Shown: positions 5,718-28,704 of the stretch, in pieces
How the letters are laid out: each line of letters opens with the position of its first letter
How positions within the stretch are numbered: the first letter of the stretch is position 1
Program-made: the position numbers and the translations under genes
NCBI GenBank assembly: GCA_037481815.1
Contig: JBBFKX010000001.1
Span: 512,001 to 576,000 of the forward strand
DNA: 64,000 bases
Direction: 5' to 3'
Source of the DNA: a candidate division WOR-3 bacterium
GTDB lineage: Bacteria; Hydrothermota; 32-111
Notes under the pieces: generated by a model
Seen by the model: the letters and a program-made list of their open reading frames with translations, nothing else
Databases searched by the model: none
What the model was told of the DNA's origin: nothing

Positions 5718-5718
5718 A

Positions 5719-7839
5719 TCACATATAACTTATCTTGTTATTTTTTCCTTTATCACTTTTTGAATCATCAAAAGAGTCGATGTTGAAATCATCAACATTA
5801 AAATCATCAAGATTGAAATCTTCTCCTATTTCCTGTTTTAAAATTGAGGAGAAATCAATGAACTCTTCCTTTTTCGTTTCTTCTTTTTTATCTGAAACTT
5901 CTATTTTAGGTTTTTCGACCTGCTTTGTTAAATTTTTCAAAGTGTTTATCCTTTTCTCTACATCTTCAAATTTTGAATCAACAGCATAAATTTCATTGTA
6001 GAGTTTTAGCGCTTCTTTGAACATATTTTTTCTTTCATAAAGTTTCCCAATAGTATATTTTATACCAAGATATTCAATTTCGGCTTTTCCTTTCATCGAA
6101 AGTGCTTTAATCAAACTTTCTTCTGCTAGTTCAAGTTCACCTTTTTCAAGGAAACATTGCCCAAGCATTTCAAGTGATTTCATTTCAAAATCTTTATTCT
6201 TTACGGATTTTTGAAATTCCTCGATAGCCATATCGTAAAGTCCCATCTCCTTAAAGGATAAACCGAGATCATAATGGCTCGACACATCCTCTTCTGAAAT
6301 ATTTTGATTGAGACCATCTTTCAGCTCATCAAGCAATTCCTGTAAAGACCAGAACGACTCATCTTTGGTTTCTTTTTGTCCTTCCTCAACTTTGAATTTT
6401 GGTCTACCACCTTCATTTTTCCCTTTCAAAATATCCGCTGCTGTTAAATGTTCACTCTCTTTAAAAATATCCAAACTTTCAGATTCTTTTAAAACATCCT
6501 CTTTAAAAGATGAAAGAAAGTCCTCAACTTTTTCTTCTTTCTGCTGTTTTGGAACTTCTGTGTGTTGAATTTTTTCAACTGGTTTTTTCGGCTCCTCAAA
6601 AACAGGTCTTTCAAAAACAGCAGGTCCCCGTTCAATTTCGCTTTTTATCTTTAATGCTTCTTTATTCGTTGGGTCAACTCTCAAAATCGTATCTATGTAA
6701 TATTTTGCTTTTTCTTTTGATTCATTTTTAACCTTGTTCGCATAATAAAGAAAAACCATTATAGCACCTTTAAAATCACCTGTCTTGTTCGAAAGTTCAA
6801 TAATTTTTTCAGAAGCTATTTTCTGTTCATTATCAAGTTCAAATATTCTTGTATAAATTTCAAGTGCTCTTTTTAAATTCCCGGCATTATAATATGCTTC
6901 AGCACCCTGATAATAATATTCTATAGCACTCTTTATATCGAGATCTTCCTGAAGTTTCCCAAGTTCAACATACGATTCTATACTTGTAGCATCCTCTTTG
7001 AATATTGATGAGATGTCTTCAACTTTTTCCTCTTCAAGATTCTTTTTCTCTTCCTTCCGTTCCGACTTTGTTTCGAAAACATCACCAGAGAATGTTTCAT
7101 CAAGTTGTTTTGCTAAATCTTCGGTGAGTTCAGTTAGGTCGACTTCAAGATTCTCTTCAACAATCTCTTTCTTTTTTTCTTCAAACTTTGGAGGTTCTTT
7201 TATCGGTTCTTTTATTTCCTCTTTTCTTATTCCAAGTTTCGATTCTATCTGGGAGATCCTTTTCCGTGTCATGGATGCCTGTGGTAAATCTCCCCTTTTT
7301 AAATAAAATGATTCTACATCTTTTAAATATTCGAGAGCAAACTCAAGGTTGTTTTCCTGAATATAAAGATCTATAAGTTTCTCTTTTATCTCGACCTTCT
7401 CTGGAACGAGTTCAAGTGTCTTTTTGAAACCTTCTATGGCCATCGTGATATTTTTTTGCTGAATCGCTTTTTCTGCAAAAAGAATATAAGAATTCAACGC
7501 TTCTCCAATTGATCCAGCTTTTTTCTGGAGATCAGCAACAGTTTCATACATTTCAAGTTGATCGGGGTCAAGTTTGATGATCTTTTTCGCCATCGCTATC
7601 GCAAGAGGAAACCATGTCTGTTGAACATAAATATTCATCGCCATCCTGTAGTTTTCAATAGCTTCAGATTTTTTCTTTAGATTGTTAATATAAAGATCAC
7701 CAATTTTGTTATATATTGCAGGATCCGGTTGCCCCTTTGTCGCGGCAATAATTTTCATATAGATTTTTATAGCATCCTCATATCTTCCACTCTTTTCAAG
7801 TTGTAACGCTTTTTCCTTCGCTTCACTTAAAGTTGCCAT
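5719..7839 (-). CDS. Large TPR protein, SgmX-like
   Basis: N-terminal and central TPR blocks separated by charged linkers; C-terminal SHYDLGLSFKEMGLYDMAIEEF TPR module. Confidence 0.7.
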   Translation of the reverse strand: MATLSEAKEKALQLEKSGRYEDAIKIYMKIIAATKGQPDPAIYNKIGDLYINNLKKKSEAIENYRMAMNIYVQQTWFPLAIAMAKKIIKLDPDQLEMYETVADLQKKAGSIGEALNSYILFAEKAIQQKNITMAIEGFKKTLELVPEKVEIKEKLIDLYIQENNLEFALEYLKDVESFYLKRGDLPQASMTRKRISQIESKLGIRKEEIKEPIKEPPKFEEKKKEIVEENLEVDLTELTEDLAKQLDETFSGDVFETKSERKEEKKNLEEEKVEDISSIFKEDATSIESYVELGKLQEDLDIKSAIEYYYQGAEAYYNAGNLKRALEIYTRIFELDNEQKIASEKIIELSNKTGDFKGAIMVFLYYANKVKNESKEKAKYYIDTILRVDPTNKEALKIKSEIERGPAVFERPVFEEPKKPVEKIQHTEVPKQQKEEKVEDFLSSFKEDVLKESESLDIFKESEHLTAADILKGKNEGGRPKFKVEEGQKETKDESFWSLQELLDELKDGLNQNISEEDVSSHYDLGLSFKEMGLYDMAIEEFQKSVKNKDFEMKSLEMLGQCFLEKGELELAEESLIKALSMKGKAEIEYLGIKYTIGKLYERKNMFKEALKLYNEIYAVDSKFEDVEKRINTLKNLTKQVEKPKIEVSDKKEETKKEEFIDFSSILKQEIGEDFNLDDFNVDDFNIDSFDDSKSDKGKNNKISYM

Positions 7840-7851
7840 AGATTTTACCTC

Positions 7852-8700
7852 TTACAACTCCCTTTTAAAGTTTCCAAACTGCTTTTTAAGACCAAGAGAT
7901 TCAGACACCTCTTCTATCATCATTGAATCAATTGGGACCCTCTGCAAAAAAGCTGCTTCAAGAAGAGCATTATCACAAATAGTATTTATCAACCTTGGTC
8001 GTCCATTTGAGTATGAATGAATAAGATCTATACTATCGGGTGTAAAAATAGATGAGATGTTCGCTCCAACAACAGATAACCGGTACTTTATATAACCATA
8101 AGTTTCTTCTCTTGAAAGTGATTTCAGATAGGTTCTCGCTGCAATCCTTTGCTGTAAAGATTCGTTCTGAAGTATATGTCTTTCAAGTTCAGGAACTCCT
8201 ATGAGTATAAAGGTTATGATCCTTCGATCGTTCAGTTCAAGGTTTAAAAAACCTCTGATCTGCTCAACTATTCTGCTATCTGAAAGTTTGTTCGCTTCAT
8301 CTATAAGAATCACAGTTTTTTTACCTTCTCTATCGAGATTTATAAGTTGTCTCGTGAGAATGTTCATCGGATCCTTCATAAGGTTCGTTGTATCCTTTAA
8401 TCCTATTATCTGTGCTATCCTTGTAAAAAGCCATTCTTCAGAAAAATTTTCATGTGTAAGAACTATAAGACCTGTTTGAAATTTTGGATTTCTTGTAAGA
8501 TATGTTAGAAGTTTTCTTGCAACCGTAGTTTTGCCTGTTCCCACATCTCCAACAAGAAGAGCAAAACCTCTCATCTTGTCAGCAGCATGCATCAACCTTA
8601 AAAGAGCCATCCTGTGTTGATTCGTTTCAAAAAAGAACCTTGTATCCGGGATATTTGCAAAAGGTTCAAAGGACATTTGAAAGAATGACTCATAATTCAT
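7852..8700 (-). CDS. ExeA/GspA-like AAA ATPase (second paralog)
   Basis: PFANIPD, GDVGTGKT, IDEAN, GRPRLINTICDNAL. Confidence 0.85.
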   Translation of the reverse strand: MNYESFFQMSFEPFANIPDTRFFFETNQHRMALLRLMHAADKMRGFALLVGDVGTGKTTVARKLLTYLTRNPKFQTGLIVLTHENFSEEWLFTRIAQIIGLKDTTNLMKDPMNILTRQLINLDREGKKTVILIDEANKLSDSRIVEQIRGFLNLELNDRRIITFILIGVPELERHILQNESLQQRIAARTYLKSLSREETYGYIKYRLSVVGANISSIFTPDSIDLIHSYSNGRPRLINTICDNALLEAAFLQRVPIDSMMIEEVSESLGLKKQFGNFKREL

Positions 8701-8710
8701 AAATCCTCAC

Positions 8711-9514
8711 TTATAAAAAGTGAATATGATTTTCATTTTGATCTTCTCTTTGAAGATCAAAAGTGTCTTCAGTATTTTTAATATTATACTCTTTTCTTTG
8801 ATTTGTCAATTTACTTATTTTCTCCTGAACATCGAGAAAGTCCGGATCATATTTCAAAATTTTTTCATAAACCTGTAATGCTTTCATGCCATCTTGCGAC
8901 TCATAAATTGAAGCGAGTTTATACATGAGTTGAAGAAAATCACTATCGAGCTGGTTTATATGATAAGTCAAAATCTCTATAGATCTTTCCTCTTTCCGCT
9001 CCTTTAAAAGGATATCAGAGTATCTTAATATCACTCTGATTTTTGCTTCACCCGATGAATAATCTATCGCTTTTCTAAAAAATGTATCATTTATTTCACT
9101 ATCAATCAGACCTCTCGATCTGACAGCAAGTTCATAGTAAGAAGAACCCATAACATCTTTTTTTTGACTCAACAGATTCAGATCTTTTTTTATCTCTTCA
9201 ATATTTTTATTTGAAAAATTTTCGGGCAACCGATACTTTAAAGATAAAGAAAAAAAGTCATTTTCTCTCTCTTTTAGGTATCTTAAAAAATTTAAACTTT
9301 CTTCATAAAGCTTTAAATGTAAAAAATGGTTGAACAGATGAAATATAACCTGAAATCTGTCATCAAAAATATCGAAAAGATTATAAAGAACTATTATCGA
9401 TCCATAATAATCTCTGTATTTTACTTTAGAGAAAAGGTCTATAAAAAATTCACTTCTTTGTGTTAACGATTCAATATTTTTGCCTTCATAAACCAAATCT
9501 TTAAATTTTTCCAA
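8711..9514 (-). CDS. TPR-containing protein
   Basis: Helical protein with C-terminal YKLASIYE...YEKILKYDPDFLDVQEKI TPR; overlaps the end of hutI. Confidence 0.6.
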   Translation of the reverse strand: MEKFKDLVYEGKNIESLTQRSEFFIDLFSKVKYRDYYGSIIVLYNLFDIFDDRFQVIFHLFNHFLHLKLYEESLNFLRYLKERENDFFSLSLKYRLPENFSNKNIEEIKKDLNLLSQKKDVMGSSYYELAVRSRGLIDSEINDTFFRKAIDYSSGEAKIRVILRYSDILLKERKEERSIEILTYHINQLDSDFLQLMYKLASIYESQDGMKALQVYEKILKYDPDFLDVQEKISKLTNQRKEYNIKNTEDTFDLQREDQNENHIHFL

Positions 9515-10733
9515 AATCCAACATCTCCCCTTTTAAAATAACAAGATCAGGTTGATCATCTCCCGTGAAATAGAATAGTTCTTTAAAATCATCTCTCTTA
9601 AACATTAAAATATCAGCATCCTTTCCCTCATGGAGGGAACCTTTGTTTTTTAGATCGAGTGAAAAAGCAGGATTTAAAGTTATTCCATAAATGAGTTCCT
9701 CATATGTTAAACCATAATTTATCATCCCAATGGTTGCTGAGAGAAGTAACGAATAACATGGAGAGGAACCAGGATTAAAATCTGTTGATATAGCGATGAT
9801 ATTCCCCACTTCCCTCATCTTTTCGATCGGTGGTCTACCTTTTAATTTTAAAAAGAAGTTTGTAGCAGGAAGAAGTGTTATTACAGTGTTGTTTTCTTTA
9901 AGGTATTGTAAATCTTGTTCATCGGGAAAATTAAAATGATCGACCGATTTTGCTTTCAATTTTCTTGCAACAAAAGAACCACCGGAGTTTTCAATCTCAT
10001 CCGCATGAACTCTCGCTTTTAATCCATATTCGATTCCCTTTTCAAGAATCTCAATCGCCTCATCTTTTGTAAAAACACCTTTTTCACAAAAAACATCGAT
10101 AAAATCTGCAAGTCCTTCCTGTGCAACAAAAGGTATCATCTCTTCTTTTAAAAATTTTAAATAGTACTCTCTTTTATCTTTAAACTCCTCAGGTATCTCA
10201 TGTGCACCCAGAAATGTGGATCTGATCTCGATAGGAAAAATTTTTTTCAACTCTTTGATCACTTTCAACTGTTTTATCTCTGTATCCCTGTCGAGCCCAT
10301 ATCCAGATTTTATTTCAATCGATGTTATCCCCTTTTTCAAAAATTTTTTAAGGCGCTCTTTTGATTCCTCTAAAAGATTTTCAAAACTGACATCTCTTGT
10401 GAACCTTACGCTTTTTTTTATTCCACCACCACTTTTTGCAATCTCCTTATAAGCAACTCCCTGTGCTCTCATCAAAAACTCATCTGCTCTTGAACCTGAG
10501 AAAACAAGATGTGAGTGAGATTCGACAAATCCGGGAGTCACAATAAATGAAGAGCAATCTATCGTTTTATCTGCTTTTTCTTCAATATCTTTCCCAATCC
10601 TTTTTATTTTTCCGTTTTCTATCACTATCGTATTTGCTGAAGATAGAGGTGAATTAAAATTGTCAAGAGTAACAAAACCCCTTTTATCATAACATGAAAC
10701 GATCTGTTTGATATTTTTTAAAATAGTTCTCAT
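9501..10733 (-). CDS. hutI: Imidazolonepropionase
   Basis: PGFVESHSHLVF, EIKSGYGL, FLGAH, DVFCE, HADE, TDFNPGSSP. Confidence 0.95.
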   Translation of the reverse strand: MRTILKNIKQIVSCYDKRGFVTLDNFNSPLSSANTIVIENGKIKRIGKDIEEKADKTIDCSSFIVTPGFVESHSHLVFSGSRADEFLMRAQGVAYKEIAKSGGGIKKSVRFTRDVSFENLLEESKERLKKFLKKGITSIEIKSGYGLDRDTEIKQLKVIKELKKIFPIEIRSTFLGAHEIPEEFKDKREYYLKFLKEEMIPFVAQEGLADFIDVFCEKGVFTKDEAIEILEKGIEYGLKARVHADEIENSGGSFVARKLKAKSVDHFNFPDEQDLQYLKENNTVITLLPATNFFLKLKGRPPIEKMREVGNIIAISTDFNPGSSPCYSLLLSATIGMINYGLTYEELIYGITLNPAFSLDLKNKGSLHEGKDADILMFKRDDFKELFYFTGDDQPDLVILKGEMLDFGKI

Positions 10734-10736
10734 GAT

Positions 10737-12395
10737 CTATTGATCGAGCATTGGCATTTTTATCTTTTCTTTTTTTGCTGTATCTATAGCTATCTGATAA
10801 CCTGCATCAGCATGTCTTACAACACCAAGCCCGGGATCGTTTGTTAAAACCCTTTCAATCTTCTTCTCCTGAAGTTCTGTTCCATCAGCAAGTATAACCT
10901 GCCCAGCATGTATCGAATAACCTATTCCAACACCACCCCCATGGTGCAAAGAAACCCATGTGGCTCCAGATGCAACATTAAGCATCGCGTTTAAAACAGG
11001 CCAATCAGCAATAGCGTCCGAACCATCCTTCATCGCCTCTGTCTCTCGGTTTGGTGATGCAGCACCACCGGTATCATGATGATCTCTACCGATCACAACA
11101 GGGCCAGATAATCTTCCCTTTTTGACCATATCGTTTATCATAAGACCAAATCTGGCTCTTTCTCCTTGTTTCAGCCAGCAGATCCTTGCAGGTAGTCCCT
11201 GAAATCTCACCAATTTTTCAGCCATCTCAATCCATTTCCTTAAATGTTCATCATCAGGGAAAATTTCAAGAAGCGCCTTATCAGTTTCAAAAATATCTTT
11301 TTCATTCCCTGTCAAAGCTACCCACCTGAAAGGACCACTACCTTCTGAGAAAAGATCCCTTATGTAAGCAGGCATATAACCAACTATTTTAAAAGCATCT
11401 TTCACTCCATTATCAAAAGCTCTTTGCCTTAAATTGTTTCCATATTCAAAAACGTTAACTCCCTTTTCCTGCATTTTTAACATCGCTTCCACATGTTTTG
11501 ATATCGAATCGTAAACCTTTTTCAAATATTCATTTCTATCCTTTTCCCTAAGAACAGCCGCTTCTTCAACAGAATAACCTGATGGAATATAACCATACAA
11601 AGGGTCATGTGCTGCTGTTTGATCTGTCAAAACATCGGGATATATTTCCCTTCTTACAAGTTCAGGCAAAATATCGGCGATATTTCCTAAAAGTCCAATC
11701 GAAAGTGGTTTCTTTTCTTTGAGTGCCTGATCTTTCATCTTTAACGCCTCATCGAGTGACTTTGCTTTGACATCACAATATCTTTGTGCTATCTTTCGAT
11801 CTATATGTGATTCATCAACCTCAACAACAATAACAACTCCATCGTTCATAACAGCAGCAAGTGGTTGTGCTCCTCCCATCTCTCCAAGTCCAGCTGTTAA
11901 AACCCATTTTCCTTTCAATGTCCCACCATAAAGTTTTTTTGCTATAGCATAAAATGTTTCATAAGTTCCCTGGAGTATTCCCTGAGTTCCAATATAGATC
12001 CATGAACCAGCAGTCATCTGCCCATAACATGTGAGTCCCATCGATTCCAATCTTAAAAACTCCTCAAGTGTTGCCCATTTCGGAACAAGTAAAGAGTTTG
12101 TTATTAAAACTCTCGGTGCCCATTCATGTGTTTTGAAAACAGCAACCGGTTTTCCTGATTGCATTATCAACGTTTCATCGTTATCCATATTCTGTAATGT
12201 CTCTATTATCTTATAATATGATTCCCAGTTTCTTGCCGCTTTTCCTCTTCCACCATAAACTATTAGATTTTCAGGATCCTTGGCAACATCCGGATCAAGA
12301 TTGTTCATAAGCATTCTCATCGGTGCTTCAAGTTGCCATGATTTGCAGGAAAGTTTTGTTCCTCTTGGGGCATGTATTGGTTTATACTCTCTCAT
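10737..12395 (-). CDS. hutU: Urocanate hydratase
   Basis: [41 protein letters not shown]. Confidence 0.97.
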
Positions 12396-12403
12396 AAATA
12401 CTC

Positions 12404-13924
12404 CTATTTTAATTTCAAATAATTTTCAACTTTTTCCACAACTTTACCTGAGTATGTCAGTTCGAATATCTTTTCAACATCCTTATAGAAAGCTCTATCA
12501 CCATCGATAGGTTTTATATTTTCAAAAAACCAAACCATCAGTTCATTTAAAGGTTTTGAACTTAAAAGGGGCCTTCTTAAATACAAAGCTGTCATAGCAG
12601 CAAAAAGTTCTATCGAAAGTATATAAAAACTATTTTCAATAACATCTCTGAGTTTTCTCGCAGAAATCGTTCCCATTGATACATGATCCTCCTGTCCCAG
12701 TGATGTTGGAATAGAATCAACACTTGCAGGATGCGCAAGCACTTTATTCTCGGATACAAGGGATGCTGTTGTTACCTGCAACATCATAAAACCACTGTTT
12801 ATACCAACATCCTTTATTAAAAATGGATAAAGTCCAGTCTGCACAGGATCAAGTAATCTGTACAATCTTCTATCGGAAATGTTCCCGAGTTCACACAAAC
12901 CTATTTTCAAAGAGTCCAAAACTGTTGCGATTATCTGACCATGAAAATTCCCGCCGGAAATTACTTCTTTCTCTTTTATAAACACGAGGGGGTTATCAGT
13001 TGAAGAGTTGAACTCTTTCTCTACCACACCTTTAGCAAAATAATAAACTTCTCTCGCTGCACCATGAACCTGCGGTATACATCTGATCGAATATGGATCC
13101 TGAACCTTGGAACAATTCCTGTGAGATTTTCTTATCTGGGATCCTTTTAAAAGATTAAAAATATTATAAGCACTATCAGCCTGTCCCTGATGATTTCTGA
13201 TATCCGAAATCCTTTTTTCAAATGGGATATCCGTTGATAACAATGCATCGGCCGATGCTGCTGCAACGATATCTGAAAGTTTCAACAGTATCTCACCTTT
13301 CACAAGAGAATACCCTGCAATTGATGTCATCATCTGAGTTCCATTTATCAAGGCAAGCCCTTCTTTTGGTTTCAGTTTAACAGGTTTAATTTTATTTTTA
13401 TTTAACACGTTTATACTCTTCACTCTTTTACCATTTTCTATACATTCGCCCTCACCTATTAAAACCAATGCTATATGGGCAAGTGGTGCAAGATCACCAC
13501 TTGCTCCAACAGAACCTTTCTGTGGAACGTATGGATATATTTTTTTGTTCAAAATCTGAATCAAACCATCCAGAGTATCAATGGAAACCCCACTGTTCCC
13601 TCTAATGATCGTATTGATTCTCAAAAGGATCGCTCCTCTGACTTCATAAAAGGAAAATGGCTCCCCAACGCCAACAGAATGTGATCTTAGAATGTTTTCC
13701 TGTAAAATTTCTATTTTATTTTTCGGAATAGTCACATCAACAAGTTTTCCAAAACCTGTTGTAACCCCATAAACCCTTTTGTTTTCTTTCACGATTTTTT
13801 CAATGATACTATATGACTCTTTTACTCTTTTTAAAGCGGAATCAGATATTTTTACCTCTTCAAGATCAAAAACAATCCTTTTGAATTTAACAAGATCAAG
13901 GTTAAAACCATCAAGTAAAACCAT
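12404..13924 (-). CDS. hutH: Histidine ammonia-lyase
   Basis: [11 protein letters not shown]-forming [23 protein letters not shown]. Confidence 0.97.
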
Positions 13925-15748: not shown

Positions 15749-16069
15749 ATGAAATATAGTGACAGGGTTTTAAAAAAATTGAAAGCACTTTCAGATAAAA
15801 CAAGGTTGGAGATAGTTTCTTTATTGATCGATAAAAAAATATGTGTTTGCGAATTATCCAAAATTTTAAAAATGTCACAACCGAGGATATCAAGACATTT
15901 AAAAATCTTAACAGAAAGTGGTATATTAAAATATGAAAAGGTAGCCCAAAAAGTTTTCTACTATATAAACAGAAAAGATAAAACAAATAAATCGATCATA
16001 AACCTTATTGAAAGGGAGTTGTATGAAGAAAGAAAAAATAAAAGTCCTGTTTGCGTGTGTAGAAAATAG
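15749..16069 (+). CDS. arsR: ArsR/SmtB family repressor
   Basis: LKALSDKTRLEI, ICVCEL metal site, SQPRISRHLKIL HTH. Confidence 0.9.
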   Translation: MKYSDRVLKKLKALSDKTRLEIVSLLIDKKICVCELSKILKMSQPRISRHLKILTESGILKYEKVAQKVFYYINRKDKTNKSIINLIERELYEERKNKSPVCVCRK

Positions 16070-16430
16070 TTTTAGGAGTCAGATAGCAGAAGGAGTTGCG
16101 AAAAAATTTTTTTCTGATTACATTGAAGCATATTCTGCTGGTTCAAAACCTACTCATACGATAAACCCTAAGGCAAAAATAGTGCTTGAAGAGATAGGTT
16201 TTGATACATCAACATTAAAACCAAAAGGTTTTTTTGATCTACCGGAAGTTGAGTTTGATTACCTGGTGACGATGGGTTGTAAAGAGGTCTGTCCAATATT
16301 CCCTTCCAAAAAAAGTTTAAACTGGGAACTTGATGATATAAAAAACGATCCAATCGAAAAAATTCGTGAAATGAGAGAACTTATAAAAAGTAAAATTCAA
16401 GAAATTGTTGATGAGGAGTTTAAAAATTAA
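16023..16430 (+). CDS. arsC: Arsenate reductase, thioredoxin-dependent LMW-PTP family
   Basis: VLFACVENSFRSQIAEG P-loop, SAGS, MGCKEVCP cysteine pair. Confidence 0.8.
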   Translation: MKKEKIKVLFACVENSFRSQIAEGVAKKFFSDYIEAYSAGSKPTHTINPKAKIVLEEIGFDTSTLKPKGFFDLPEVEFDYLVTMGCKEVCPIFPSKKSLNWELDDIKNDPIEKIREMRELIKSKIQEIVDEEFKN

Positions 16431-16482
16431 AATCTGAATTTTTCAAAAATATTTGTAAAACAAAAATTTTAGGAGTAAGAAA

Positions 16483-17775
16483 ATGAGTGAAGATTTAAAA
16501 AAGTTATTTTTGATGATCTTTATTTTTTTGTCAGCATACTTTTTACCGTTAAATTCAAAGACAATTCAGGATGCGATATTATCCTCCTTCTTTCTCTTAC
16601 AGGATTATGCTCAAAAACATGTGATTTTATGTCTCATTCCTGCATTTTTTATAGCGGGTGCTATGGGTGTTTTCATATCATCGGATACTGTTTTAAAATA
16701 TCTTGGAAGTAAAGCAAATCAAATTGTTGCATACTTTATAGCTTCAGTTTCTGGAGCGATACTTGCAGTTTGTTCATGCACCGTTCTTCCACTATTCGCA
16801 GGCATATATAAAAAAGGTGCGGGACTTGGGCCTGCTATTGCATTTTTGTATTCAGGGCCTGCTATAAATATTCTTGCGATAATTCTAACCGCTAAAGTTC
16901 TTGGATTTCAGATGGGTCTTTTTAGAGCAATATTTGCTGTATCACTTTCGATAATCATAGGTCTTCTTATGTCTTTAACTTTTAGAGAAAAAAAGGAAAC
17001 ATCTGATAAAAACGATTCTACTGAGAAAAATATTGACAGAAAAAGATATTTTCTCTTGAATATGATCCATTTTATCGCAATGATTGGAATACTTGTTTTC
17101 TCGAACTGGGCAAAAACTGATAATCTAACAGGACTCTGGTTTTTTGTTTACAAAATAAAATGGATTTTGGTTTCTGTTTTTACAATACTTTTGGGTTTTT
17201 CATTAAACAAACTTTTAAATATAAAAGTATTATACCTTTTAATTTCTTCCGTCGTTCTTTTAATCATTTATTTAACATTTAAATCTCCAATTATAACTTT
17301 TACAACAGGAATAATAATCCTTGTTTTACTTTTACTCAAAGGTAACGAAAAATCTCAAATCTGGCTTGATACCACAAAAGATTTCGCTTTCCAAATAATG
17401 CCGCTTCTTTTTTCAGGTATACTTATCGCCGGATTTTTGCTTGGAACACCTGATGGGAGGATTGGTCTTATTCCAAAACATTGGATCTCAAAACTCGTCG
17501 GTGGGAATTCGATCTTTTCAAACCTTTTCGCTTCAGTTGTTGGAGCTTTTATGTATTTTGCAACTTTAACAGAAGTCCCAATAATACAGGGCCTTATGAA
17601 CTCAGGAATGGGAAAAGGTCCAGCTTTATCTCTTCTTTTAGCAGGTCCCGCTCTTTCCTTACCTAATATGCTTGTTATAAGAAGTATACTTGGAACGAGA
17701 AAAACTTTTTTTTATGTAGGTTATGTTATAGTTCTTTCAACTATAGCAGGATTTGTTTTTGGTTTTACAAATTAA
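16483..17775 (+). CDS. ArsP/DUF318 permease
   Basis: AVCSCTVLPLF, SGPAINIL, MYFATLTEVP, GPALSLP. Confidence 0.85.
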   Translation: MSEDLKKLFLMIFIFLSAYFLPLNSKTIQDAILSSFFLLQDYAQKHVILCLIPAFFIAGAMGVFISSDTVLKYLGSKANQIVAYFIASVSGAILAVCSCTVLPLFAGIYKKGAGLGPAIAFLYSGPAINILAIILTAKVLGFQMGLFRAIFAVSLSIIIGLLMSLTFREKKETSDKNDSTEKNIDRKRYFLLNMIHFIAMIGILVFSNWAKTDNLTGLWFFVYKIKWILVSVFTILLGFSLNKLLNIKVLYLLISSVVLLIIYLTFKSPIITFTTGIIILVLLLLKGNEKSQIWLDTTKDFAFQIMPLLFSGILIAGFLLGTPDGRIGLIPKHWISKLVGGNSIFSNLFASVVGAFMYFATLTEVPIIQGLMNSGMGKGPALSLLLAGPALSLPNMLVIRSILGTRKTFFYVGYVIVLSTIAGFVFGFTN

Positions 17776-17788
17776 AAGGAGGTCTGGT

Positions 17789-18034
17789 ATGAAAATTCAG
17801 ATTTTAGGGAAAGGTTGTCCAAAATGTAAAAAACTTGAAGAAAACACCATAATTGCAGCAAAAGAGTTAAATCTTGAATACGATATTGAAAAGGTTCAAG
17901 AGATTACTAAAATTGTAGAGATGGGAGTAACTATAACACCAGCACTGGCAATCGATGGAAAGGTTTTAATATCAGGGCAAGTTTTATCACCAGAAGCGAT
18001 TAAAAAAATTTTAAAAGAGCATTTAAACCTTTGA
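17789..18034 (+). CDS. Small redox-active disulfide protein (thioredoxin_3 family)
   Basis: MKIQILGKGCPKC and TPALAIDG; SD AAGGAGG. Confidence 0.9.
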   Translation: MKIQILGKGCPKCKKLEENTIIAAKELNLEYDIEKVQEITKIVEMGVTITPALAIDGKVLISGQVLSPEAIKKILKEHLNL

Positions 18035-18960
18035 ATATGGAACATCAATCCCATTTCCATCAGAATTCAATCGATGATAAAGATCGACAAAACATCGATC
18101 GTAACATAGTTTTTAAATTTACCATAACAATATTCTTAAACCTTCTGATAACAATTTTTGAAATACTTGGTGGGTTTATTTCCGGATCCCTGATGTTAAT
18201 TTCAGACAGTTTACATAACTTTGCTGATTCATTTTCGTTGTTCCTTTCTTTTTTCGCTATAAAAATATCAAAAAAAGAAAAAAATAAAAGAAAAACTTTC
18301 GGGTATAAAAGAGCTGAGATCATCGTTTCACTATTCAACTCATCCTTCCTTTTGATAATCTCTTTTTCTATAATCTGGGAAAGTATTAAAAGGTTCATAA
18401 GACCAGAAATCATAGATTCGAACATCCTTCTTTTCGTTTCATCTGTTGGATTTCTGGGAAACCTGATTTCAGTTTTCATTTTACATAAAGATTCTTCGAA
18501 AAGTTTAAACATAAGATCCAGTTATCTTCATCTTTTTTCTGATACTTTGAGTTCCGTTGGCGTAATCATCGGAGCCATTTTCATTAAACTTTATAAAATC
18601 TATTTCGTTGATTCAATTCTTTCATTCTTAATATCCTTATATATAATTTTTCAAACTTATTCCATATTTAAAAAATCGATAGATATACTTATGCAATCGT
18701 CAGTTGAACTTGATTATGACTCTATAAAACACGATATAGAAAAGATCGATGGAGTCAAAAATATTCATCATGTACATACATGGATGACAAATGAAACGAC
18801 ATTCTATTTTGAAGCGCATGTAGAACTTGAAGACATGATGTTATCTCAAACATGTAGAATCTTGGAAGAAATCGAAAAACTTCTAAAAGAAAAATATGGA
18901 ATAAATCACACAACAATTCAGTTTGAAACAAACAAATGCGAAAAAAAAACTATGTTTTAA
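18031..18960 (+). CDS. Cation diffusion facilitator (CzcD/ZitB-like)
   Basis: SDSLHNFAD, TFGYKRAE, YLHLFSD, HHVHTW, HTTIQFE. Confidence 0.9.
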   Translation: MNMEHQSHFHQNSIDDKDRQNIDRNIVFKFTITIFLNLLITIFEILGGFISGSLMLISDSLHNFADSFSLFLSFFAIKISKKEKNKRKTFGYKRAEIIVSLFNSSFLLIISFSIIWESIKRFIRPEIIDSNILLFVSSVGFLGNLISVFILHKDSSKSLNIRSSYLHLFSDTLSSVGVIIGAIFIKLYKIYFVDSILSFLISLYIIFQTYSIFKKSIDILMQSSVELDYDSIKHDIEKIDGVKNIHHVHTWMTNETTFYFEAHVELEDMMLSQTCRILEEIEKLLKEKYGINHTTIQFETNKCEKKTMF

Positions 18961-19975: not shown

Positions 19976-20470
19976 TTACCAGTAGTAATTATCGTTAGCA
20001 AGATCGTTCGAAATCGGATAAGGTTCTTCCTGATAATTGTCAACATACCAGAAATCATATCCCCAATCTCCATCAAGATCGTTGCCATCCCAGACTGATG
20101 CTATACCATAAACACAAATATAATCATAAGTAAACCATTTGTACCAAAAAACATAGTATAAATACCTTGATTTTTGTGGAAATTTGAAAGGAAGTTTTTC
20201 AAGTTCGATATCTTCAGGATAACAACTGTTGTCAGGATTCACAACAAGGTAACCCCAATAATCACCATTATCTGGAAAGTAAAGACCTGTTTCAAAAAAA
20301 TTCAACCTTTCATAATTGTAAACCGTTTTAATCGCATGTTTCATAATCGTTTGTCTGACAATACCTCTGACTCTCATAAAAGATGGTATCGATAAGGAAA
20401 CAAGAATACCAAGTATTGCGATAACTACTGTTAACTCAACAAGAGTGAAACCTTTTTTTTCTTTCAACAT
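19976..20470 (-). CDS. Type IV prepilin
   Basis: KKG|FTLVELTVVIAILGILVSLSIP class III signal with E5 and P22; SD AGGAGG. Confidence 0.9.
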   Translation of the reverse strand: MLKEKKGFTLVELTVVIAILGILVSLSIPSFMRVRGIVRQTIMKHAIKTVYNYERLNFFETGLYFPDNGDYWGYLVVNPDNSCYPEDIELEKLPFKFPQKSRYLYYVFWYKWFTYDYICVYGIASVWDGNDLDGDWGYDFWYVDNYQEEPYPISNDLANDNYYW

Positions 20471-20481
20471 AATTCCCTCCT

Positions 20482-20985
20482 TTATTTCTGTACAATTATT
20501 CCTTTAGCTGAAAATGCTGGAGATTTTATGGAATCGTTTTTGATTTTCAGTATAAATCCAAAATTTTCATCCTTTTTGTAATAAAGATGTCTGGGTTCAG
20601 AAACATTATAACTTTTAGAAACTTCCTCTAAATTTTCAGGGAAAAATTTTTTGTTTTTTCCATAATCTAGGATCAACCTGTTGAAAAGTATCAATTCCTG
20701 ATACGGGTTTAAAGAATCCATCTGAAGAAGAGTTACTTTTTCAATCTGGTTTGAAAGTTGTTTTGAATGGGTTCCCTTATAAAAAAATAATATAAAAATT
20801 TCAAACAGGATTATCGGAATACTCAAAAAAATGAAAATATAAACGAACGAGAATCGTTTTTTCCTGTTTTTCGTTTCCTTTGATTTTTCAAACTCATCCG
20901 CTCTCTTTTCCGCTTCCTCTATTAAAGTTTTGTAATCTCTTTCCAAATTTCCACTATCCCATTTGGATTTTTTTTCATCTTCCAT
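20482..20985 (-). CDS. Single-TM hypothetical protein with a pseudopilin-like helix
   Basis: Charged N-terminus, one TM segment, then ILDYGKNKKFFPENLEEV; SD AAGGAGG. Confidence 0.55.
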   Translation of the reverse strand: MEDEKKSKWDSGNLERDYKTLIEEAEKRADEFEKSKETKNRKKRFSFVYIFIFLSIPIILFEIFILFFYKGTHSKQLSNQIEKVTLLQMDSLNPYQELILFNRLILDYGKNKKFFPENLEEVSKSYNVSEPRHLYYKKDENFGFILKIKNDSIKSPAFSAKGIIVQK

Positions 20986-21120: not shown

Positions 21121-21149
21121 TTGACTTAGATTTAATACAAATATAAAAT
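21121..21149 (+). promoter_or_regulatory. sigma70 promoter
   Basis: TTGACT-N17-TAAAAT upstream of ORF 21167. Confidence 0.55.
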
Positions 21150-21166
21150 AACCAAAAGGATTTATT

Positions 21167-22231
21167 ATGATGGAGTATACATTTTATTTGATCGCTTCTA
21201 TCTCATTATCTTTTTCACTCTTTATAATCTTCAAACTCATACCGATTACAGGTTTTTTCATCCCCGGTATGATGGGTTTTGTTTTTACAGCATCGATGAT
21301 TTTTCTTTTGTTTGAAAAGAAAATAATTTTAGGTTTTAAAAATAATTTTAAAACTGGTCTATTATTATCGATTCCATCGGTTGGATTTTACATTTTATTA
21401 TTATTCCAGTTGAAATTTTTTGATCCATTTACAATAATCTTTATACTTTTCTTATCCTATAAAATTTCATCGGAACAATTTTTAAGAAAAAAATATGACA
21501 TTATTTATGTTTTAATCATGTTGGTGATTTTTATATTTTTGAACAAACTTTACATGGATTTAAAACTTTTCGCTCACTCTTTTATTTCTTTTGTTATTCA
21601 GATTCTTCTTTTCAAACTTTTGAAAAAAACTCAAAAGTTCAATATATCTCCTGTTGAAAAAATATTTTATCCTTATCTTTCAGGTGCAATAGTTTTAACC
21701 ACATTATATTTTTTCAATAAACCAGAACAAACCCCCGAAATTAACCAATTGAATCAGATATTTTTATCCATTTACGTTTTTATATCAAATTTTTTACTCT
21801 CATTATTTATGATAAAATTTGAAGATCTGGATTTAAAAAAAATAAATAAGGATTTTCTTTTCTCCTGTGCTCTATTTTTTACTCTATTTCTGTTTTTGAA
21901 TATTCCAAACATTATTCTTTTCTTTTTGGTTCTCATCTTAGTGATAAAAGAATTTTTCTTAAAGAAAAGAATGAAAAAAGGTTTTGGTGTTAGTGAATAT
22001 ATTGCTATACTAACAATGGCTGCAATAATTTTTTCTCTTCTGATTCCATCGATCAAAATAGTTAAAAACAAGATTGTTGCGATGCATGACTGCGAAAAAT
22101 TGAACAACAGTAAAGGTGATTTAAGAAATGTATATCAAATAGATGGTATCTATATAAAATTTATCAACAGAAAGCCTTCATTCATATACACAAAAACAAA
22201 AGATAGATTCAGATACCTCTCTATCCAATAA
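21167..22231 (+). CDS. Polytopic membrane protein with a C-terminal prepilin-like domain
   Basis: About 9-10 hydrophobic segments followed in frame by KKRMKKG|FGVSEYIAILTMAAIIFSLLIP. Confidence 0.6.
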   Translation: MMEYTFYLIASISLSFSLFIIFKLIPITGFFIPGMMGFVFTASMIFLLFEKKIILGFKNNFKTGLLLSIPSVGFYILLLFQLKFFDPFTIIFILFLSYKISSEQFLRKKYDIIYVLIMLVIFIFLNKLYMDLKLFAHSFISFVIQILLFKLLKKTQKFNISPVEKIFYPYLSGAIVLTTLYFFNKPEQTPEINQLNQIFLSIYVFISNFLLSLFMIKFEDLDLKKINKDFLFSCALFFTLFLFLNIPNIILFFLVLILVIKEFFLKKRMKKGFGVSEYIAILTMAAIIFSLLIPSIKIVKNKIVAMHDCEKLNNSKGDLRNVYQIDGIYIKFINRKPSFIYTKTKDRFRYLSIQ

Positions 22232-23897
22232 TTTTATAAACATCATCCTTCACTTTTTCACATCTTTCTTTTATCTGGTCAAGAATACTTTTTGCCTTTG
22301 TTTTTGTACTCTCTTTATATTCTGAATCATCGAGATTTTTTAAATTGATAAGAATATTCATATATGCACCTTCAGCACATGAGAGAAGATTCAAAGATGC
22401 TACACCCGCATCAGAGATTGAGTTTACATTCCCGATCTTTGTTATCTTTTCAAGATAGGGTAAAAGTTCATTTATGGTTTCCAATGTCTTCATCGGAACA
22501 TCTATGGCTTTTTTTGTAGCATCCTTCAATTTTTCATCCCTGATCCTTTTTTCTTCCTCACTCTTTTTAGGCAATTTAAAAACCTCCATATAATAGTTGA
22601 AAGCTTCGGTATCAAGATCGATAAGTTCGAGCATCAGATCCTTTATCCTTTGCGATTGAGAAGAAATCTCTTGAGTATCTTCGTTATATTTTTCATATCC
22701 TTTCTTTCCGAAAGTCAAATTAGCAACCATTGAAACAAGGGATGCAGATATAGAACCTGACAATGCAGCGACACTACCTCCACCAGGGGCTGGAGAATCC
22801 GTCGAAAGTTCATCACAAAAATCTTTCAAATTCATATCGATAAGTTTTTTCTTTTTCATCTTACTTTCATAAGCATACTCTATAACTTTTTTGTTTACAT
22901 CAAATGGATAAAGAGTATCGAGTCCTAAAGATTTAATCGCTATATAAAGGATCTCCTTTTCAGGAATACCTATAGATTTTCCCTGCTTTTTCAGATAAAA
23001 TTTACCTGCCTCAATTAAAGCATTTTTCGGTATCAAACCAACAAGTTCTGAACCGGTTACTTTAACACCGATTTTATTTGCTTCCTCTGTTGCTTTTTCA
23101 TAAGCGATATGAGGAGGAGTAACTTTCCAGTTCGTTAGATTTATTGATATCTGTGCAATATTATAATCATCAACAAACCAGCCGATAGCTCTACACTCTT
23201 TTAAGAGGCCAGGGACATAAACCGTATTCCCATTTTCATCTTTTACGATTTTCCCATTCTCATCCTTTTTAGGATATCCTTTCTCTCTTATAACATTTGC
23301 GATCTGCGTTGCAAGTTTAGCATCTTTCGTGTTAAGGTTTATATTGTATGCGATCAAAAAATCCCTGACACCTATGACGGTGGCACCACTTTTTGGGTTG
23401 AATTCAGCCTTACCAAAATCTGGTTTCCAGTTTGGATCTTTTATTTTATCTTTAAGTCCCTCGTATTCACCTTCTCTTATATTCGCCAAAGATTTTCTTT
23501 TTGGTTCAGTTGCAGCATATTCATAAAGATAAACTGGAATGTTCAACTCGTTTGCAACCCTTTCTCCAAGTTTTCTTGCAAGTTGAACACATTCTTCAAC
23601 ACTGATTTCACTCACTGGAACAAAGGGACAAACATCACATGCTCCCATTCTTGGATGTTCTCCTTTATGTTTTGACATATCTATAAGTTCCGAACCCTTT
23701 TTTATAGCAAGAAATGCTGATTCAAGAACAGATTCAGGAGTTCCAATGAAAGTTATCACTGTTCTGTTTGTCGCTGCTCCGGGATCAACATCAAGAAGGA
23801 TTGTTCCACTTACTGATTCTATAGCATCAGTTATCTGTTTTATAACATTCATATCTTTACCTTCAGAAAAATTTGGTACACATTCAACTAATTTCAT
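22221..23897 (-). CDS. ftcD: Bifunctional glutamate formiminotransferase / formiminotetrahydrofolate cyclodeaminase
   Basis: LVECVPNFSEG, HPRMGACDVCPF and C-terminal SPAPGGGSVAA cyclodeaminase domain. Confidence 0.93.
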   Translation of the reverse strand: MKLVECVPNFSEGKDMNVIKQITDAIESVSGTILLDVDPGAATNRTVITFIGTPESVLESAFLAIKKGSELIDMSKHKGEHPRMGACDVCPFVPVSEISVEECVQLARKLGERVANELNIPVYLYEYAATEPKRKSLANIREGEYEGLKDKIKDPNWKPDFGKAEFNPKSGATVIGVRDFLIAYNINLNTKDAKLATQIANVIREKGYPKKDENGKIVKDENGNTVYVPGLLKECRAIGWFVDDYNIAQISINLTNWKVTPPHIAYEKATEEANKIGVKVTGSELVGLIPKNALIEAGKFYLKKQGKSIGIPEKEILYIAIKSLGLDTLYPFDVNKKVIEYAYESKMKKKKLIDMNLKDFCDELSTDSPAPGGGSVAALSGSISASLVSMVANLTFGKKGYEKYNEDTQEISSQSQRIKDLMLELIDLDTEAFNYYMEVFKLPKKSEEEKRIRDEKLKDATKKAIDVPMKTLETINELLPYLEKITKIGNVNSISDAGVASLNLLSCAEGAYMNILINLKNLDDSEYKESTKTKAKSILDQIKERCEKVKDDVYKIIG

Positions 23898-25421: not shown

Positions 25422-26378
25422 TTATTGTGAAAAAAATCTTACAGAGTTTTCTGAAAAATTTCCAAAAAGATCATAAACCCTGACAACAAATCTATATCCA
25501 CCTTCTTTAAGGATCTGATCATAAACAAACAGAGTATCATAAATTGAACAAGTATCAGAGAAAATTATACTATCGTTTTCATCTTTTATCGAGAGGTTTA
25601 TATAAGAAGAATAGTAGGGTTTATCGGTTCTGAACCTGAAAATGTATGGATAATCCATCTGTTGTTCCTCATCTGGATAATAGATAGAAGGTATATACTC
25701 AACAAACCTTATAAGTGACAGATTTTTGACACTCAAACTTTCTCCGTAACCATCTATGATTTTAACGGAAGCATTCTCTCCTATCAGATCATAGATGTTT
25801 AATGGTGAACTTATTTTGTTGAAATTCAAAGAACATTTGATAAAATCCCCTTCATAAATTTTGATAAAAGAGTACTCTCCAAAATCGAATTTTATTGAAG
25901 CGACAGAAATATCATCTATCGAATCTTTTTCCTGAATCTTTACTATAAAATTCACATCGTAACTTAAACTATCGAGTATATCATATGTTCTTTTAACAGA
26001 AGAATAAACATACGATGTTTCAACTTGAGGTATGAAATTCAAATATTCTACCAATTCAAGGGGAATACCTGAAGCAAGGAAAGTATCAAGATATAATGTT
26101 GAATATCCCTCTTTATAAAATTTTATTTTTATATCACCTTTCAAAATGTTTGAAAAAGAAACATAACCATTAATATCGGTTACCTTTGATAATGTATCGT
26201 TAATAATTACTTCAACTTCTGGGAGTGGGTTATGGAAATGATCATAACATAATATTTTAACTGTACTTTTTCCAAATCGATTTTCAGGATCCAGTAACGC
26301 TTCATGAGGTTGATCTATATAACAACCCTGATATAAAAAAATACAAAAAATAAAAATTTTCAAAAATTTTTTTACCAT
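25422..26378 (-). CDS. Putative lipoprotein, beta-rich
   Basis: Signal peptide ending LYQG-C; TDINGY...KEGY carboxypeptidase-regulatory-like domain. Confidence 0.55.
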   Translation of the reverse strand: MVKKFLKIFIFCIFLYQGCYIDQPHEALLDPENRFGKSTVKILCYDHFHNPLPEVEVIINDTLSKVTDINGYVSFSNILKGDIKIKFYKEGYSTLYLDTFLASGIPLELVEYLNFIPQVETSYVYSSVKRTYDILDSLSYDVNFIVKIQEKDSIDDISVASIKFDFGEYSFIKIYEGDFIKCSLNFNKISSPLNIYDLIGENASVKIIDGYGESLSVKNLSLIRFVEYIPSIYYPDEEQQMDYPYIFRFRTDKPYYSSYINLSIKDENDSIIFSDTCSIYDTLFVYDQILKEGGYRFVVRVYDLFGNFSENSVRFFSQ

Positions 26379-27043
26379 ACAATATCAAAAATGTTAAAAA
26401 TATAAACAGAAAACGAGATATCAAGAAAAAACCGATTAACTTTCGACCAGCTGTTATAAATATTGTAATTCTTTATGGCTTCATCTTCAGTAGTTGATTT
26501 CATATACATATCCTTCATATTCAGAGTAAAAATATAAGAAGTTACACTTCCTATAACAGAAGAAAGAAAAATCGATCCCAAAACAATCGACTTATTTTTC
26601 TCCCCAATAGACATCTGTCCCCATCCAGGGAATACCATCGATTTAATGATAATACCTTTCTTATTTATATTCGAATTGTTTTCTGTTTCAATTTTAAAAT
26701 ATGATGGTGTTTCCTTTATCAAAAAATTTATCCTTTCTTTTGCTTTCAAGAAAACCTGAACTATTTTAGGAGAAACAAATTCTTCATTCAAAGTATAATT
26801 GTTATCAAGAGTTAAAATATTTTCAAAATATCTCTGACCGTTTATCGTATCCCCTAAAGCGATATAAGAAAATGCTATATATGTTTGCAGATTGATAAGA
26901 TCATCTTTACCCATATCATCTTTAAAATCTTTTAATATTCTTTCTCCTTCTGAGATAACCTTATCATATTCTCCAGTTTCATAATAAATTATTATATCGT
27001 TGATCGTAGTTGAAAATATGAAGAATGGAATGAGCAAAATCAA
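26372..27043 (-). CDS. TPR plus DUF5683-like exported/membrane protein
   Basis: N-terminal hydrophobic signal, TPR-like helices, SMVFPGWGQ motif. Confidence 0.55.
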   Translation of the reverse strand: MILLIPFFIFSTTINDIIIYYETGEYDKVISEGERILKDFKDDMGKDDLINLQTYIAFSYIALGDTINGQRYFENILTLDNNYTLNEEFVSPKIVQVFLKAKERINFLIKETPSYFKIETENNSNINKKGIIIKSMVFPGWGQMSIGEKNKSIVLGSIFLSSVIGSVTSYIFTLNMKDMYMKSTTEDEAIKNYNIYNSWSKVNRFFLDISFSVYIFNIFDIVW

Positions 27044-28704
27044 AAGGAATAGATTTTTTTTAATAATTCCTCCTCTTTAATGAAAATTTCATCCTCTATC
27101 GTTTGATACGCCGGATTTTCAATTTTGATCCTATGTGGACCGATCAAAAGTTTAATAGAATCACCGATTGGGGTAAGTCCAATAAAGTTATCATCTATGG
27201 TCACCTTTCCCCATGGTCTTACAACTATTTTTAGATAACCAAATGCTTTTTCAAGTTCAACATCAATTTTTGAAACTTTATCTTTTTCAATAAAAATCTC
27301 TTTTGAATACTCTTTTCTGTTAGGATGTTTCAACTTTATCAAATGTTTTCCAGTTTTCAGTTTAATATTTTTCGAAAGGGGTGTTCGATCGATAAAAATA
27401 TCATCTATATAAAGATCAGCCCATGGGACCACATTTACAGCAAGATAACCATACTCTTCTTTGATCTCCTTCTTTTTCATTTCAAAAAATATTGAATCAT
27501 TTTTTGTAAGTTCAAAATTCGTATCTATTTTTTCATATTCTGGATTCAAAGATGAAATTCTGTATTTACCTTTTTCGAGAGAAATTTTTTGAGGTGTTAA
27601 TACAACTATGGAATCGTTTATTGATATCTGAATATCTTTCGGTTGAGTTACTATGAAAAGAGAAAATTTTTCAACCTGTTGTTCCTTTACATAGATAGTT
27701 TTTATTCTTTCATTTTTTGTAAAAAAGTAGAATTGATAAAAGATAAGGGACAAAAGAACGAAAAGTAAAAAAATAAAGATAACCAATTCTGTATATTTAC
27801 CTTTCTTTTTTATCTTAACTTTGATATAGGATTTAAAATGTTGATTCTGTTCTTTTTGAGAAAAAACAAACTCTTTTAAATCATTTTTTGTAATTGGGAT
27901 TTGGAATTTATCTATCTTCTCAATTATTTCATCACAGGAAGAAGGTCTTTTGGATGGATCCCTGTTTAACATCAAATTTATGAGTTCTATAAAAAGTGGT
28001 GGGATATTATTGGGATCATAATCAAAATCCAATTTTCTAAAATAAAGAATATTGTTTATCGTTTCAAATTGATCTTTTCCTTCAAAAGGATTTTTACCTG
28101 TTATCATTTCAACAACCGTGATTCCAAGAGAAAATATATCTGATGAAACGGTTATCTCTCTTCCAGAAAGTTGTTCTGGAGGGAAGTATGCAGGGGTTCC
28201 AATATATGTTCCAGGATTGGTGACATTAATAAGTTCTTTTCCAAATGCGAGTCCAAAATCTGTAATTTTAACGGTTCCATCATCAGATAGCATTATATTA
28301 TCAGGTTTTAAATCTCTATGTAAAATCTGTTGTGAATGGATATATGATAACCCCTTTAAGACCTCTTTTAAAATAAAAATTGTATATTCAAAAGGTATCG
28401 TTTTCTTCTCATTTATAAGACTTTTTAAAGATTTACCTTTTATATACTCCAGAACAATGAATTTATCATCATCTTTTTCATAAAAATCGATAATTGAAAC
28501 TATATTTTCATGTTTCAATTTTCCAAGGATCGATGCTTCCCTTTTAAATCTTTTTACAAAATTTGCATCCTGACTTAAATGTGGGTGCAATTTTTTAATC
28601 ACAACTTCCCGGTTGAGAGAAATTTGCACACCCTTATATATTGTTGCCATTCCTCCTGTTGCAATTGTTTCCTTTATAATATATTTATTTTCATTCATAT
28701 TCAT
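27040..28704 (-). CDS. Hanks-type Ser/Thr protein kinase with TM segment and PEGA domains
   Basis: GGMATIY, VIKK, HRDLKPDN, DFG, GTPAYFPPEQ; TM; three PEGA-like repeats (PWADLYID, PWGKVTID). Confidence 0.92.
   Translation of the reverse strand: MNMNENKYIIKETIATGGMATIYKGVQISLNREVVIKKLHPHLSQDANFVKRFKREASILGKLKHENIVSIIDFYEKDDDKFIVLEYIKGKSLKSLINEKKTIPFEYTIFILKEVLKGLSYIHSQQILHRDLKPDNIMLSDDGTVKITDFGLAFGKELINVTNPGTYIGTPAYFPPEQLSGREITVSSDIFSLGITVVEMITGKNPFEGKDQFETINNILYFRKLDFDYDPNNIPPLFIELINLMLNRDPSKRPSSCDEIIEKIDKFQIPITKNDLKEFVFSQKEQNQHFKSYIKVKIKKKGKYTELVIFIFLLFVLLSLIFYQFYFFTKNERIKTIYVKEQQVEKFSLFIVTQPKDIQISINDSIVVLTPQKISLEKGKYRISSLNPEYEKIDTNFELTKNDSIFFEMKKKEIKEEYGYLAVNVVPWADLYIDDIFIDRTPLSKNIKLKTGKHLIKLKHPNRKEYSKEIFIEKDKVSKIDVELEKAFGYLKIVVRPWGKVTIDDNFIGLTPIGDSIKLLIGPHRIKIENPAYQTIEDEIFIKEEELLKKIYSF

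Follow-up and report, generated by a model that had tools for sequence, protein, structure and literature searches.

The window analyzed here, a stretch of 64,000 nucleotides from a candidate division WOR-3 bacterium, is part of a 1.58-Mb assembly that is 95% complete. At 21167..22231 (+), it carries a single open reading frame encoding 354 amino acids followed by a stop codon, in which a pilin cleavage signal, normally N-terminal, is located approximately 270 residues inside the protein. The frame continues past a hydrophobic part of about 265 residues as ...LVLILVIKEFFLKKRMKKG|FGVSEYIAILTMAAIIFSLLIPSIK, and the linker KKRMKKG precedes FGVSEYIAILTMAAIIFSLLIPSIK. The N-terminal part of this DMT-pilin fusion protein, residues 1–265 (21167..21961, +), is a 10-TM domain with a DMT/EamA fold as modelled. 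It is followed by residues 266–272 (KKRMKKG; 21962..21982, +), a basic linker that is predicted to be cytoplasmic, takes the place of a prepilin leader, and ends in the invariant glycine at position −1. Residues 273–294 (21983..22048, +) form an alpha1N-like hydrophobic helix with F+1, E+5, A+8, S+18, and P+22, and residues 295–354 (22049..22228, +) comprise the remainder of the long helix (to residue 313) and four beta strands (322–352) that make up a small pilin-like "head". In the pilin numbering used throughout, G272 is −1, F273 is +1, E277 is +5, and P294 is +22, and the putative mature pilin, which begins with F273, has a length of 82 aa (21983–22228). An in-frame ATG (M269) is present at 21971..21973 (+) and, if used as a start, would give MKKGF..., and TAG-TGA-TAA is present at 21939–21947 in the +1 frame. 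When the sequence was re-read, the coordinates and sequence of the frame, the internal ATG, and the +1-frame stops were all as described in an earlier, sequence-only reading of this DNA. The fusion gene looks monocistronic. A candidate promoter-like site, TTGACT-17-TAAAAT, with 10/12 consensus matches lies 18 nt before the start codon at 21121..21149 (+); 11 promoter-like sites were found in the region overall as compared with 10.5 expected, which is no enrichment, and the site at 21121–21149 is regarded as a candidate.

The sequence-only reading had allowed for two genes fused by an indel or an assembly error, in line with the T-runs and the +1-frame stops that adjoin the junction, and had proposed inspecting related genomes for fused homologues. 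In a search of 41 related genomes, the fusion protein was found in 13/13 other genomes of its candidate division WOR-3 family and in 0/27 genomes outside it. None of the matches contained a stop; 11 covered nearly the whole query, and those of G007 and G011 were pieces at contig ends. When 201 genomes of the phylum were searched with a profile, 13/13 family genomes were again recovered, 12 of them with full-length or nearly full-length proteins, that of G007 being cut by a contig end, while G011 gave only pieces at contig ends. The thirteenth family genome, the one without a full-length frame, is a 330-contig assembly. The 187 genomes outside the family in the same search gave two weak partial matches, one DMT-only and the other pilin-like. 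Eight near-length matches were obtained among 5.8 billion clustered proteins, all of 352–354 aa and with a coverage of 97–100%. Among 1.84 billion representatives, 11 matches at E < 1e-30 (307–360 aa) covered the whole profile, the 307-aa one lacking the N-terminus. A stand-alone module was sought among proteins shorter than 194 aa matching residues 262–354; none was found, and no split form was seen.

The junction was also examined in Logan contigs, which are assembled contigs rather than raw reads. In four runs, two of which may be the source of the assembly and two of which are from other studies, the contigs show the stretch free of insertions and deletions. Contigs of the independent runs X3 (21912–22180) and X4 (21863–22044) both span the junction with 0 differences and 0 gaps. 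The same single frame, shared by 12/13 other family genomes at 22–83% identity, together with indel-free contigs across the junction from four runs, two of them independent of the source, rules out two genes fused by error. The fusion is one real gene and not an assembly artefact, and the chance that an indel or a misassembly joined two genes is negligible. The homologues in related genomes are thus fused, as the caveat had left to be checked, and the caveat itself is rejected.

The AlphaFold2 model, computed on 15 homologues, had a mean pLDDT of 84 and a pTM of 0.77 and showed ten helices up to residue 266. When compared with 48,161 PDB representatives by VIA-align, residues 1–268 adopted a 10-TM DMT fold, the top eight chains all belonging to the DMT superfamily (Z 17.5 to 10.9) and the next match having a Z of 7.9. 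The triose-phosphate translocator (TPT) 5y78_A ranked first (Z 17.5, 256 aligned, rmsd 3.9), and SLC35B1 9gry_A (Z 16.7), PfCRT 6ukj_A (Z 13.9), LicB 7b0k_A (Z 13.9), YddG 5i20_A (Z 13.5), and CMP-sialic acid and nucleotide-sugar transporters (Z 12.3 to 10.9) were also matched. Foldseek analysis of the N-terminal domain placed the same DMT proteins on top with E values of 0.011 and up and a probability of 1.00. The family profile reached two 300-aa proteins over positions 6–280 only (P0021, E 2e-8; P0032, E 6.3e-4), both of which are EamA by Pfam. The ESM Atlas returned EamA/DMT clusters with a score of only 0.82, which is below the trustworthy level. Pfam and NCBIfam gave no family for the whole open reading frame or for its C-terminal part, and PF00892 (EamA) was unmatched at E ≤ 1; matches to DUF1317, Bap31, and TadF had E > 0.01 and were dismissed as noise. 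A prepilin peptidase was also considered for the N-terminal domain and rejected, as there was no Peptidase_A24 match, no GxGD among the invariant columns, and the fold was that of DMT proteins. As judged from the model, the N-terminal domain has the DMT/EamA fold, although it does not fall within the Pfam EamA family, and the earlier guess of an "EamA/DMT-like" N-terminal part was right at the fold level. What the protein has in common with DMT/EamA transporters (PF00892; YddG, LicB, TPT, and SLC35B1) is the 10-TM fold over residues 1–268; it differs from them in adding an eleventh helix and a predicted periplasmic head and in having no Pfam EamA match.

In the accessible text of two reviews, class III signals are placed at the N-terminus, where a hydrophilic leader of 6–26 aa ends in Gly (or Ala) and is followed by 20–25 mainly hydrophobic residues, usually with Glu at +5 (PMC10191384, PMC4471445); no residue other than Gly or Ala is permitted at the end of the leader (PMC10191384). 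The window protein has the basic leader-like residues and the hydrophobic stretch of such a signal, with the motif starting at residue 266 of 354 instead of following a short N-terminal leader. In an alignment of 15 sequences with 22–83% identity to the window protein, only 15 columns were invariant, and five of them, G−1, E+5, A+8, S+18, and P+22, lie in the pilin-like stretch. Position −2 was K or R in 15/15 sequences, and +1 was F, I, or M in 14, the remaining sequence having T. When four more representatives were inspected by eye, all had E+5 and P+22, three had G at −1 and one had A, and one had Thr at +1. The helix 273–294 had a mean pairwise identity of 54% as compared with 34% for the DMT part, where only TM2 was equally conserved, and its alpha1N small-residue stripe consists of A+8, T+11, A+14, and S+18. 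Within the head, D308, I330, and Y341 were invariant and K331 was nearly invariant across the 15 sequences. Positions +2 to +4 of the family (GVS, SKI) deviate from the usual TLI.

Whether this resemblance could be that of an ordinary TM helix unrelated to pilins was considered, because spurious profile matches arise with hydrophobic helices. A strict pattern, [KR]G[FIMLVT]xxxE followed by 16 uncharged non-Pro residues and then P, had five matches among the 8,591 frames that are 50 aa or longer (1.03 million aa) in the organism's own genome, namely four canonical N-terminal prepilins and the internal site, and 20 within-frame shuffles of all frames gave one match in total. With a module profile built from the C-terminal 90 residues of 13 family proteins, pilins ranked 1–3 among 177,635 PDB sequences (9egp_A, E 4.5e-5; 7tgg_A, E 0.0053; PilA 9laa_A, E 0.35), and all three alignments were in register at the basic residues, G|F, E5, and P22. 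Searched against the 8,591 own-genome frames, the profile recovered itself and then 5/7 canonical prepilins (E 6.5e-5 to 3e-3) and nothing else up to E 10. Profile positions of approximately 270–344 were also matched by short proteins in the 1.84-billion library; four of them (P0022, P0026, P0029, and P0031) were scanned and all were PF07963 proteins, three with the motif within the first 10 residues. Separately, the short DUF1559-type library proteins P0022, P0024, and P0025 were seen to carry two complete prepilin motifs in tandem within 131–196 aa, and may be frameshifted duplicates or true tandem prepilins.

The curated prepilin models PF07963 and TIGR02532 gave no match to the window protein at E ≤ 1, while the neighbouring pilin was matched at 2.3e-7, and PF07963 matched 0/13 family members even at E ≤ 10. 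Type IV pilins have a "lollipop" fold, in which an alpha1 helix of ~50 residues bears a head based on an antiparallel sheet. For the full-length protein and for the module alone (pLDDT 82.5), AlphaFold2 predicted a 41-residue helix at 273–313 with four strands after it. Foldseek analysis of the C-terminal model against the PDB gave no meaningful match (best E 0.9). VIA-align of this small model was weak, with GspK first (Z 5.6, 68 aligned, rmsd 2.3); among the 50 matches listed, seven were pilins or pseudopilins, including TT_C0855, GspH, and PilA4, all with Z < 6 and interleaved with RelE/ParE-type toxins at Z of about 4. These weak fold matches of the head would suit a chance resemblance, against which stand the strict motif, found with four prepilins in the genome as compared with one match in 20 shuffles, and the profile, which found only prepilins among 8,591 frames and placed pilins first of 177,635 PDB sequences. 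A chance origin is accordingly highly improbable, and the match of the internal site to the class III signature is more than chance. We conclude that the C-terminal module is a divergent pilin homologue, the alpha1 helix being well supported and the head less so. The "complete class III signal" of the sequence-only reading is borne out by G−1, E+5, and P+22 in 15/15 homologues.

The module shares with type IV prepilins the basic residues, G−1, a hydrophobic +1, E+5, about 21 hydrophobic residues, P+22, and in-register profile similarity, and its predicted long alpha1 with an antiparallel sheet would resemble theirs. It differs from them in that ten TM helices precede its signal, which begins at residue 266, and in that the curated HMMs are unmatched. 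The best PDB sequence match was Geobacter PilA-N ("Geopilin domain 1"; 9egp and 7tgg), aligned over the leader, alpha1N, and alpha1C, and both proteins are very short pilins. Geopilin occurs as a separate, entirely helical N-terminal prepilin with about 61 mature residues, whereas the fusion module has a four-stranded head and a transporter domain in front.

The family-averaged number of K+R was high (3.6–4.3 per loop) in the loops 50–62, 99–110, 153–165, 218–230, and 261–272, and alternate loops had 0.3–1.7. DMT transporters have both ends inside the cytoplasm. The ten helices and the positive-inside pattern therefore place the KKG linker, like the two termini of the DMT domain, in the predicted cytoplasm and the head in the predicted periplasm, which agrees with the cytoplasmic KKRMKKG that the earlier reading had called for. 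Residues 268–271 of the linker are the only stretch with pLDDT < 50. A complex prediction of the DMT domain (1–265) with the pilin module (266–354) gave scores of 0.01 and 0.02 as compared with a mark of 0.32 and was given no weight for or against any reading.

Cleavage as imagined in the sequence-only reading requires a prepilin peptidase, and the genome has one: a 260-aa open reading frame (L014:1390-2169, −) with A24_N_bact (2.1e-36) and Peptidase_A24 (5e-11), which is a bifunctional prepilin peptidase. Peptidase_A24 was above the cut-off in 12/14 family genomes, and assembly fragmentation is greatest in the other two (300 and 330 contigs). The genome also encodes PilC, four PilB-like and two PilT-like ATPases, a secretin, and seven canonical prepilins, four of which have the leader MKKGF. 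Outside the window, three prepilin genes are clustered at G000:C1:416618-420000, one of them in an 862-aa open frame that would make a giant pilin, probably a minor or tip one with a large head.

The neighbourhood of the fusion gene was examined for a link to pili. An orphan prepilin gene at 19976–20470 (−), encoding 164 aa (N_methyl, 2.3e-7), and a 167-aa gene are located next to it. This pair (19976–20985, −), in which the 167-aa partner has one hydrophobic stretch and no family, is far from the main pilus cluster, which is on another contig. Among the loci with a visible upstream flank, the pair was found only in the window, L002, and L003. The latter two are the closest relatives of the window locus, and the pair therefore looks like a recent insertion beside the fusion gene; in L005 and L006, a macro-domain gene is the direct neighbour. 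The earlier description of the gene as divergent from the pilin operon is thus correct in that a divergent pilin gene adjoins it; what adjoins is one orphan pilin gene with a 167-aa gene, the main cluster lies elsewhere, and the link is not conserved. The only conserved neighbour is a convergent formiminotransferase-cyclodeaminase gene that overlaps the 3′ end by a few bases, present at 11/11 loci examined and at L008. Behind the cyclodeaminase gene, a sigma-54 activator is encoded in the window and in the four loci whose flank reaches there. The context gives no functional link of the fusion gene to pili.

Several other gene groups were recorded in the window. The formiminotransferase-cyclodeaminase gene (22221–23897, −) lies 8 kb from other histidine degradation genes at 9501–13924 (−), which encode an aromatic amino acid lyase (HutH-like), urocanase, and an amidohydrolase (HutI-like). 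A metal/arsenic-type resistance row at 15749–18960 (+) comprises an ArsR regulator, a low-molecular-weight phosphatase (arsenate reductase type), an ArsP_1 permease, a small thioredoxin-fold protein, and a cation-efflux (CDF) transporter. At 4899–8700 (−), a gene for a 706-aa TPR protein lies between two AAA_22/TniB-like ATPase genes, and a Ser/Thr protein kinase with PEGA domains is followed by two open reading frames without a Pfam family (318 and 223 aa) at 25422–28704 (−).

The analysis establishes how the gene is built, that this build is conserved, that the C-terminal module is homologous to pilins, and that the N-terminal domain has the DMT fold; the processing step is proposed. The gene product is best seen as an 11-helix inner-membrane precursor whose 10-TM DMT-fold domain has both ends in the predicted cytoplasm. 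Its short basic linker, predicted to be cytoplasmic, mimics the leader of a prepilin and is followed by a complete miniature type IV pilin, with an alpha1 helix and a four-stranded head in the predicted periplasm. The prepilin peptidase/N-methyltransferase of the genome may then cut after G272 on the cytoplasmic face; the released 82-aa pilin would join type IV filaments as a low-abundance subunit, and the DMT transporter would be left behind at a 1:1 ratio and at the same membrane site. Cleavage by the prepilin peptidase after G272 with release of the pilin is considered the most probable single reading, with a likelihood that falls short of an even chance. The complete proposal, one gene giving rise to a DMT transporter and an 82-aa minor pilin in a fixed 1:1 ratio by a peptidase cut inside a polytopic precursor, is put forward tentatively. 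Cleavage is favoured because the class III determinants are all kept while the DMT part falls to approximately 18–25% identity, because the linker is flexible and cytoplasmic, because the enzyme is present, and because Glu5 is invariant. In the accessible text of one review, Glu5 is dispensable for processing and needed for filament assembly (PMC4471445), and its invariance in the family therefore points to assembly. Against cleavage, there is no known precedent, the curated HMMs fail, the residues at +2 to +4 and the Thr seen at +1 in two proteins are atypical, the fold matches of the head are weak, the pilus genes are not conserved neighbours, and the "leader" is a 271-residue polytopic domain as compared with the hydrophilic leaders of 6–26 aa given in the portions of the reviews consulted (PMC10191384, PMC4471445). 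Fission has also never been seen though it would be easy, the closest relatives even having Met at −4, and the lack of a split form suggests that the covalent link itself is selected.

That the fusion is kept in every family genome searched, with no split form found, is what would be expected if the junction stays uncut and the module remains bound to the 10-TM domain. The alpha1N helix with E+5 and P+22 would then dock on free pilins or on the filament base. Such a protein would have Glu5, would lack a free N-terminal amine, and could not be extracted from the membrane, properties with which it could terminate or anchor a filament or sense the membrane pool of pilins. Docking beneath a filament is conceivable because the partner of Glu5 is the N-terminal amine of the overlying subunit, according to the accessible part of a review (PMC10191384). 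The alpha1N helix, together with TM2 the best conserved and carrying the small-residue stripe, also fits this arrangement. However, a permanently tethered pilin has no known precedent, the restriction to G or A at −1 is unexplained by it except as a tight loop, and it shares with the cleavage reading the difficulty that pilus genes are not conserved neighbours; it is regarded as rather unlikely. Somewhat less probable still, and unlikely in our view, is that a pilin captured long ago has been domesticated and is now just an eleventh TM helix with a periplasmic accessory domain, having no link to filaments or to the peptidase. The failure of the curated prepilin HMMs would be natural for such a module, the invariant D308, I330, and Y341 and the near-invariant K331 suggest that the head has a function of its own, and the only conserved neighbour is the convergent formiminotransferase-cyclodeaminase gene and not pilus genes. 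A membrane-embedded Glu, moreover, is a working residue in some DMT/SMR transporters. What a mere anchor would not be expected to show is that −1, +5, and +22 are exactly the residues held invariant while the DMT part diverges to 18–25% identity. Translation could also start from the ATG at 21971 and yield a separate 86-aa prepilin, MKKGF..., from inside the transporter gene, with the same leader as in four canonical prepilins of the genome. This is very unlikely, as Met is present only in the window protein and its three closest homologues (4/15), and neither a strong Shine-Dalgarno sequence before 21971 nor a promoter-like site just upstream of it was found.

Modular pilins keep their class III signal at the N-terminus and carry an additional domain after the pilin. 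The fusion protein resembles them in combining a pilin with an extra domain and differs in that this domain comes before the signal and is a polytopic membrane one; it has no module behind a pilin with an N-terminal signal. In the modular pilins PilB and PilC of Streptococcus sanguinis, as described in the accessible text of a review, the pilin is joined to a domain that also occurs outside pilus biology (PMC10191384). The tandem precursor Arg5,6, which the mitochondrial processing peptidase cleaves internally according to the part of the source consulted, offers a functional analogy for a cleaved polyprotein, in that a presequence peptidase acts on a second, internal copy of its site within a precursor that combines two proteins (PMC8734313). 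The enzyme, compartment, and proteins are unrelated, and the substrates are soluble. Full-text literature searches, with most subscription journals outside their scope, found neither a DMT/EamA-pilin fusion nor an internal prepilin-peptidase site. The fusion protein descends from, and putatively works like, two known kinds of protein, DMT transporters and type IV pilins. In one of the features that define a prepilin, an N-terminal signal with a short hydrophilic leader, it departs from that family, and the curated models of both families are unmatched.

The family has kept a class III signal through deep divergence, placed behind a ten-helix transporter domain, and the architecture comes from an uncultured hot-spring bacterium of candidate division WOR-3. 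If the junction is not cut, the protein would be a natural case of a pilin permanently tethered to the membrane and could show how filaments end, are anchored, or are sensed. If it is cut, the substrate range of the prepilin peptidase would be wider than assumed, and predictors limited to N-termini would miss a class of substrates. Class III signals would then not need to be N-terminal, and transporter and pilus functions would be coupled in this lineage.
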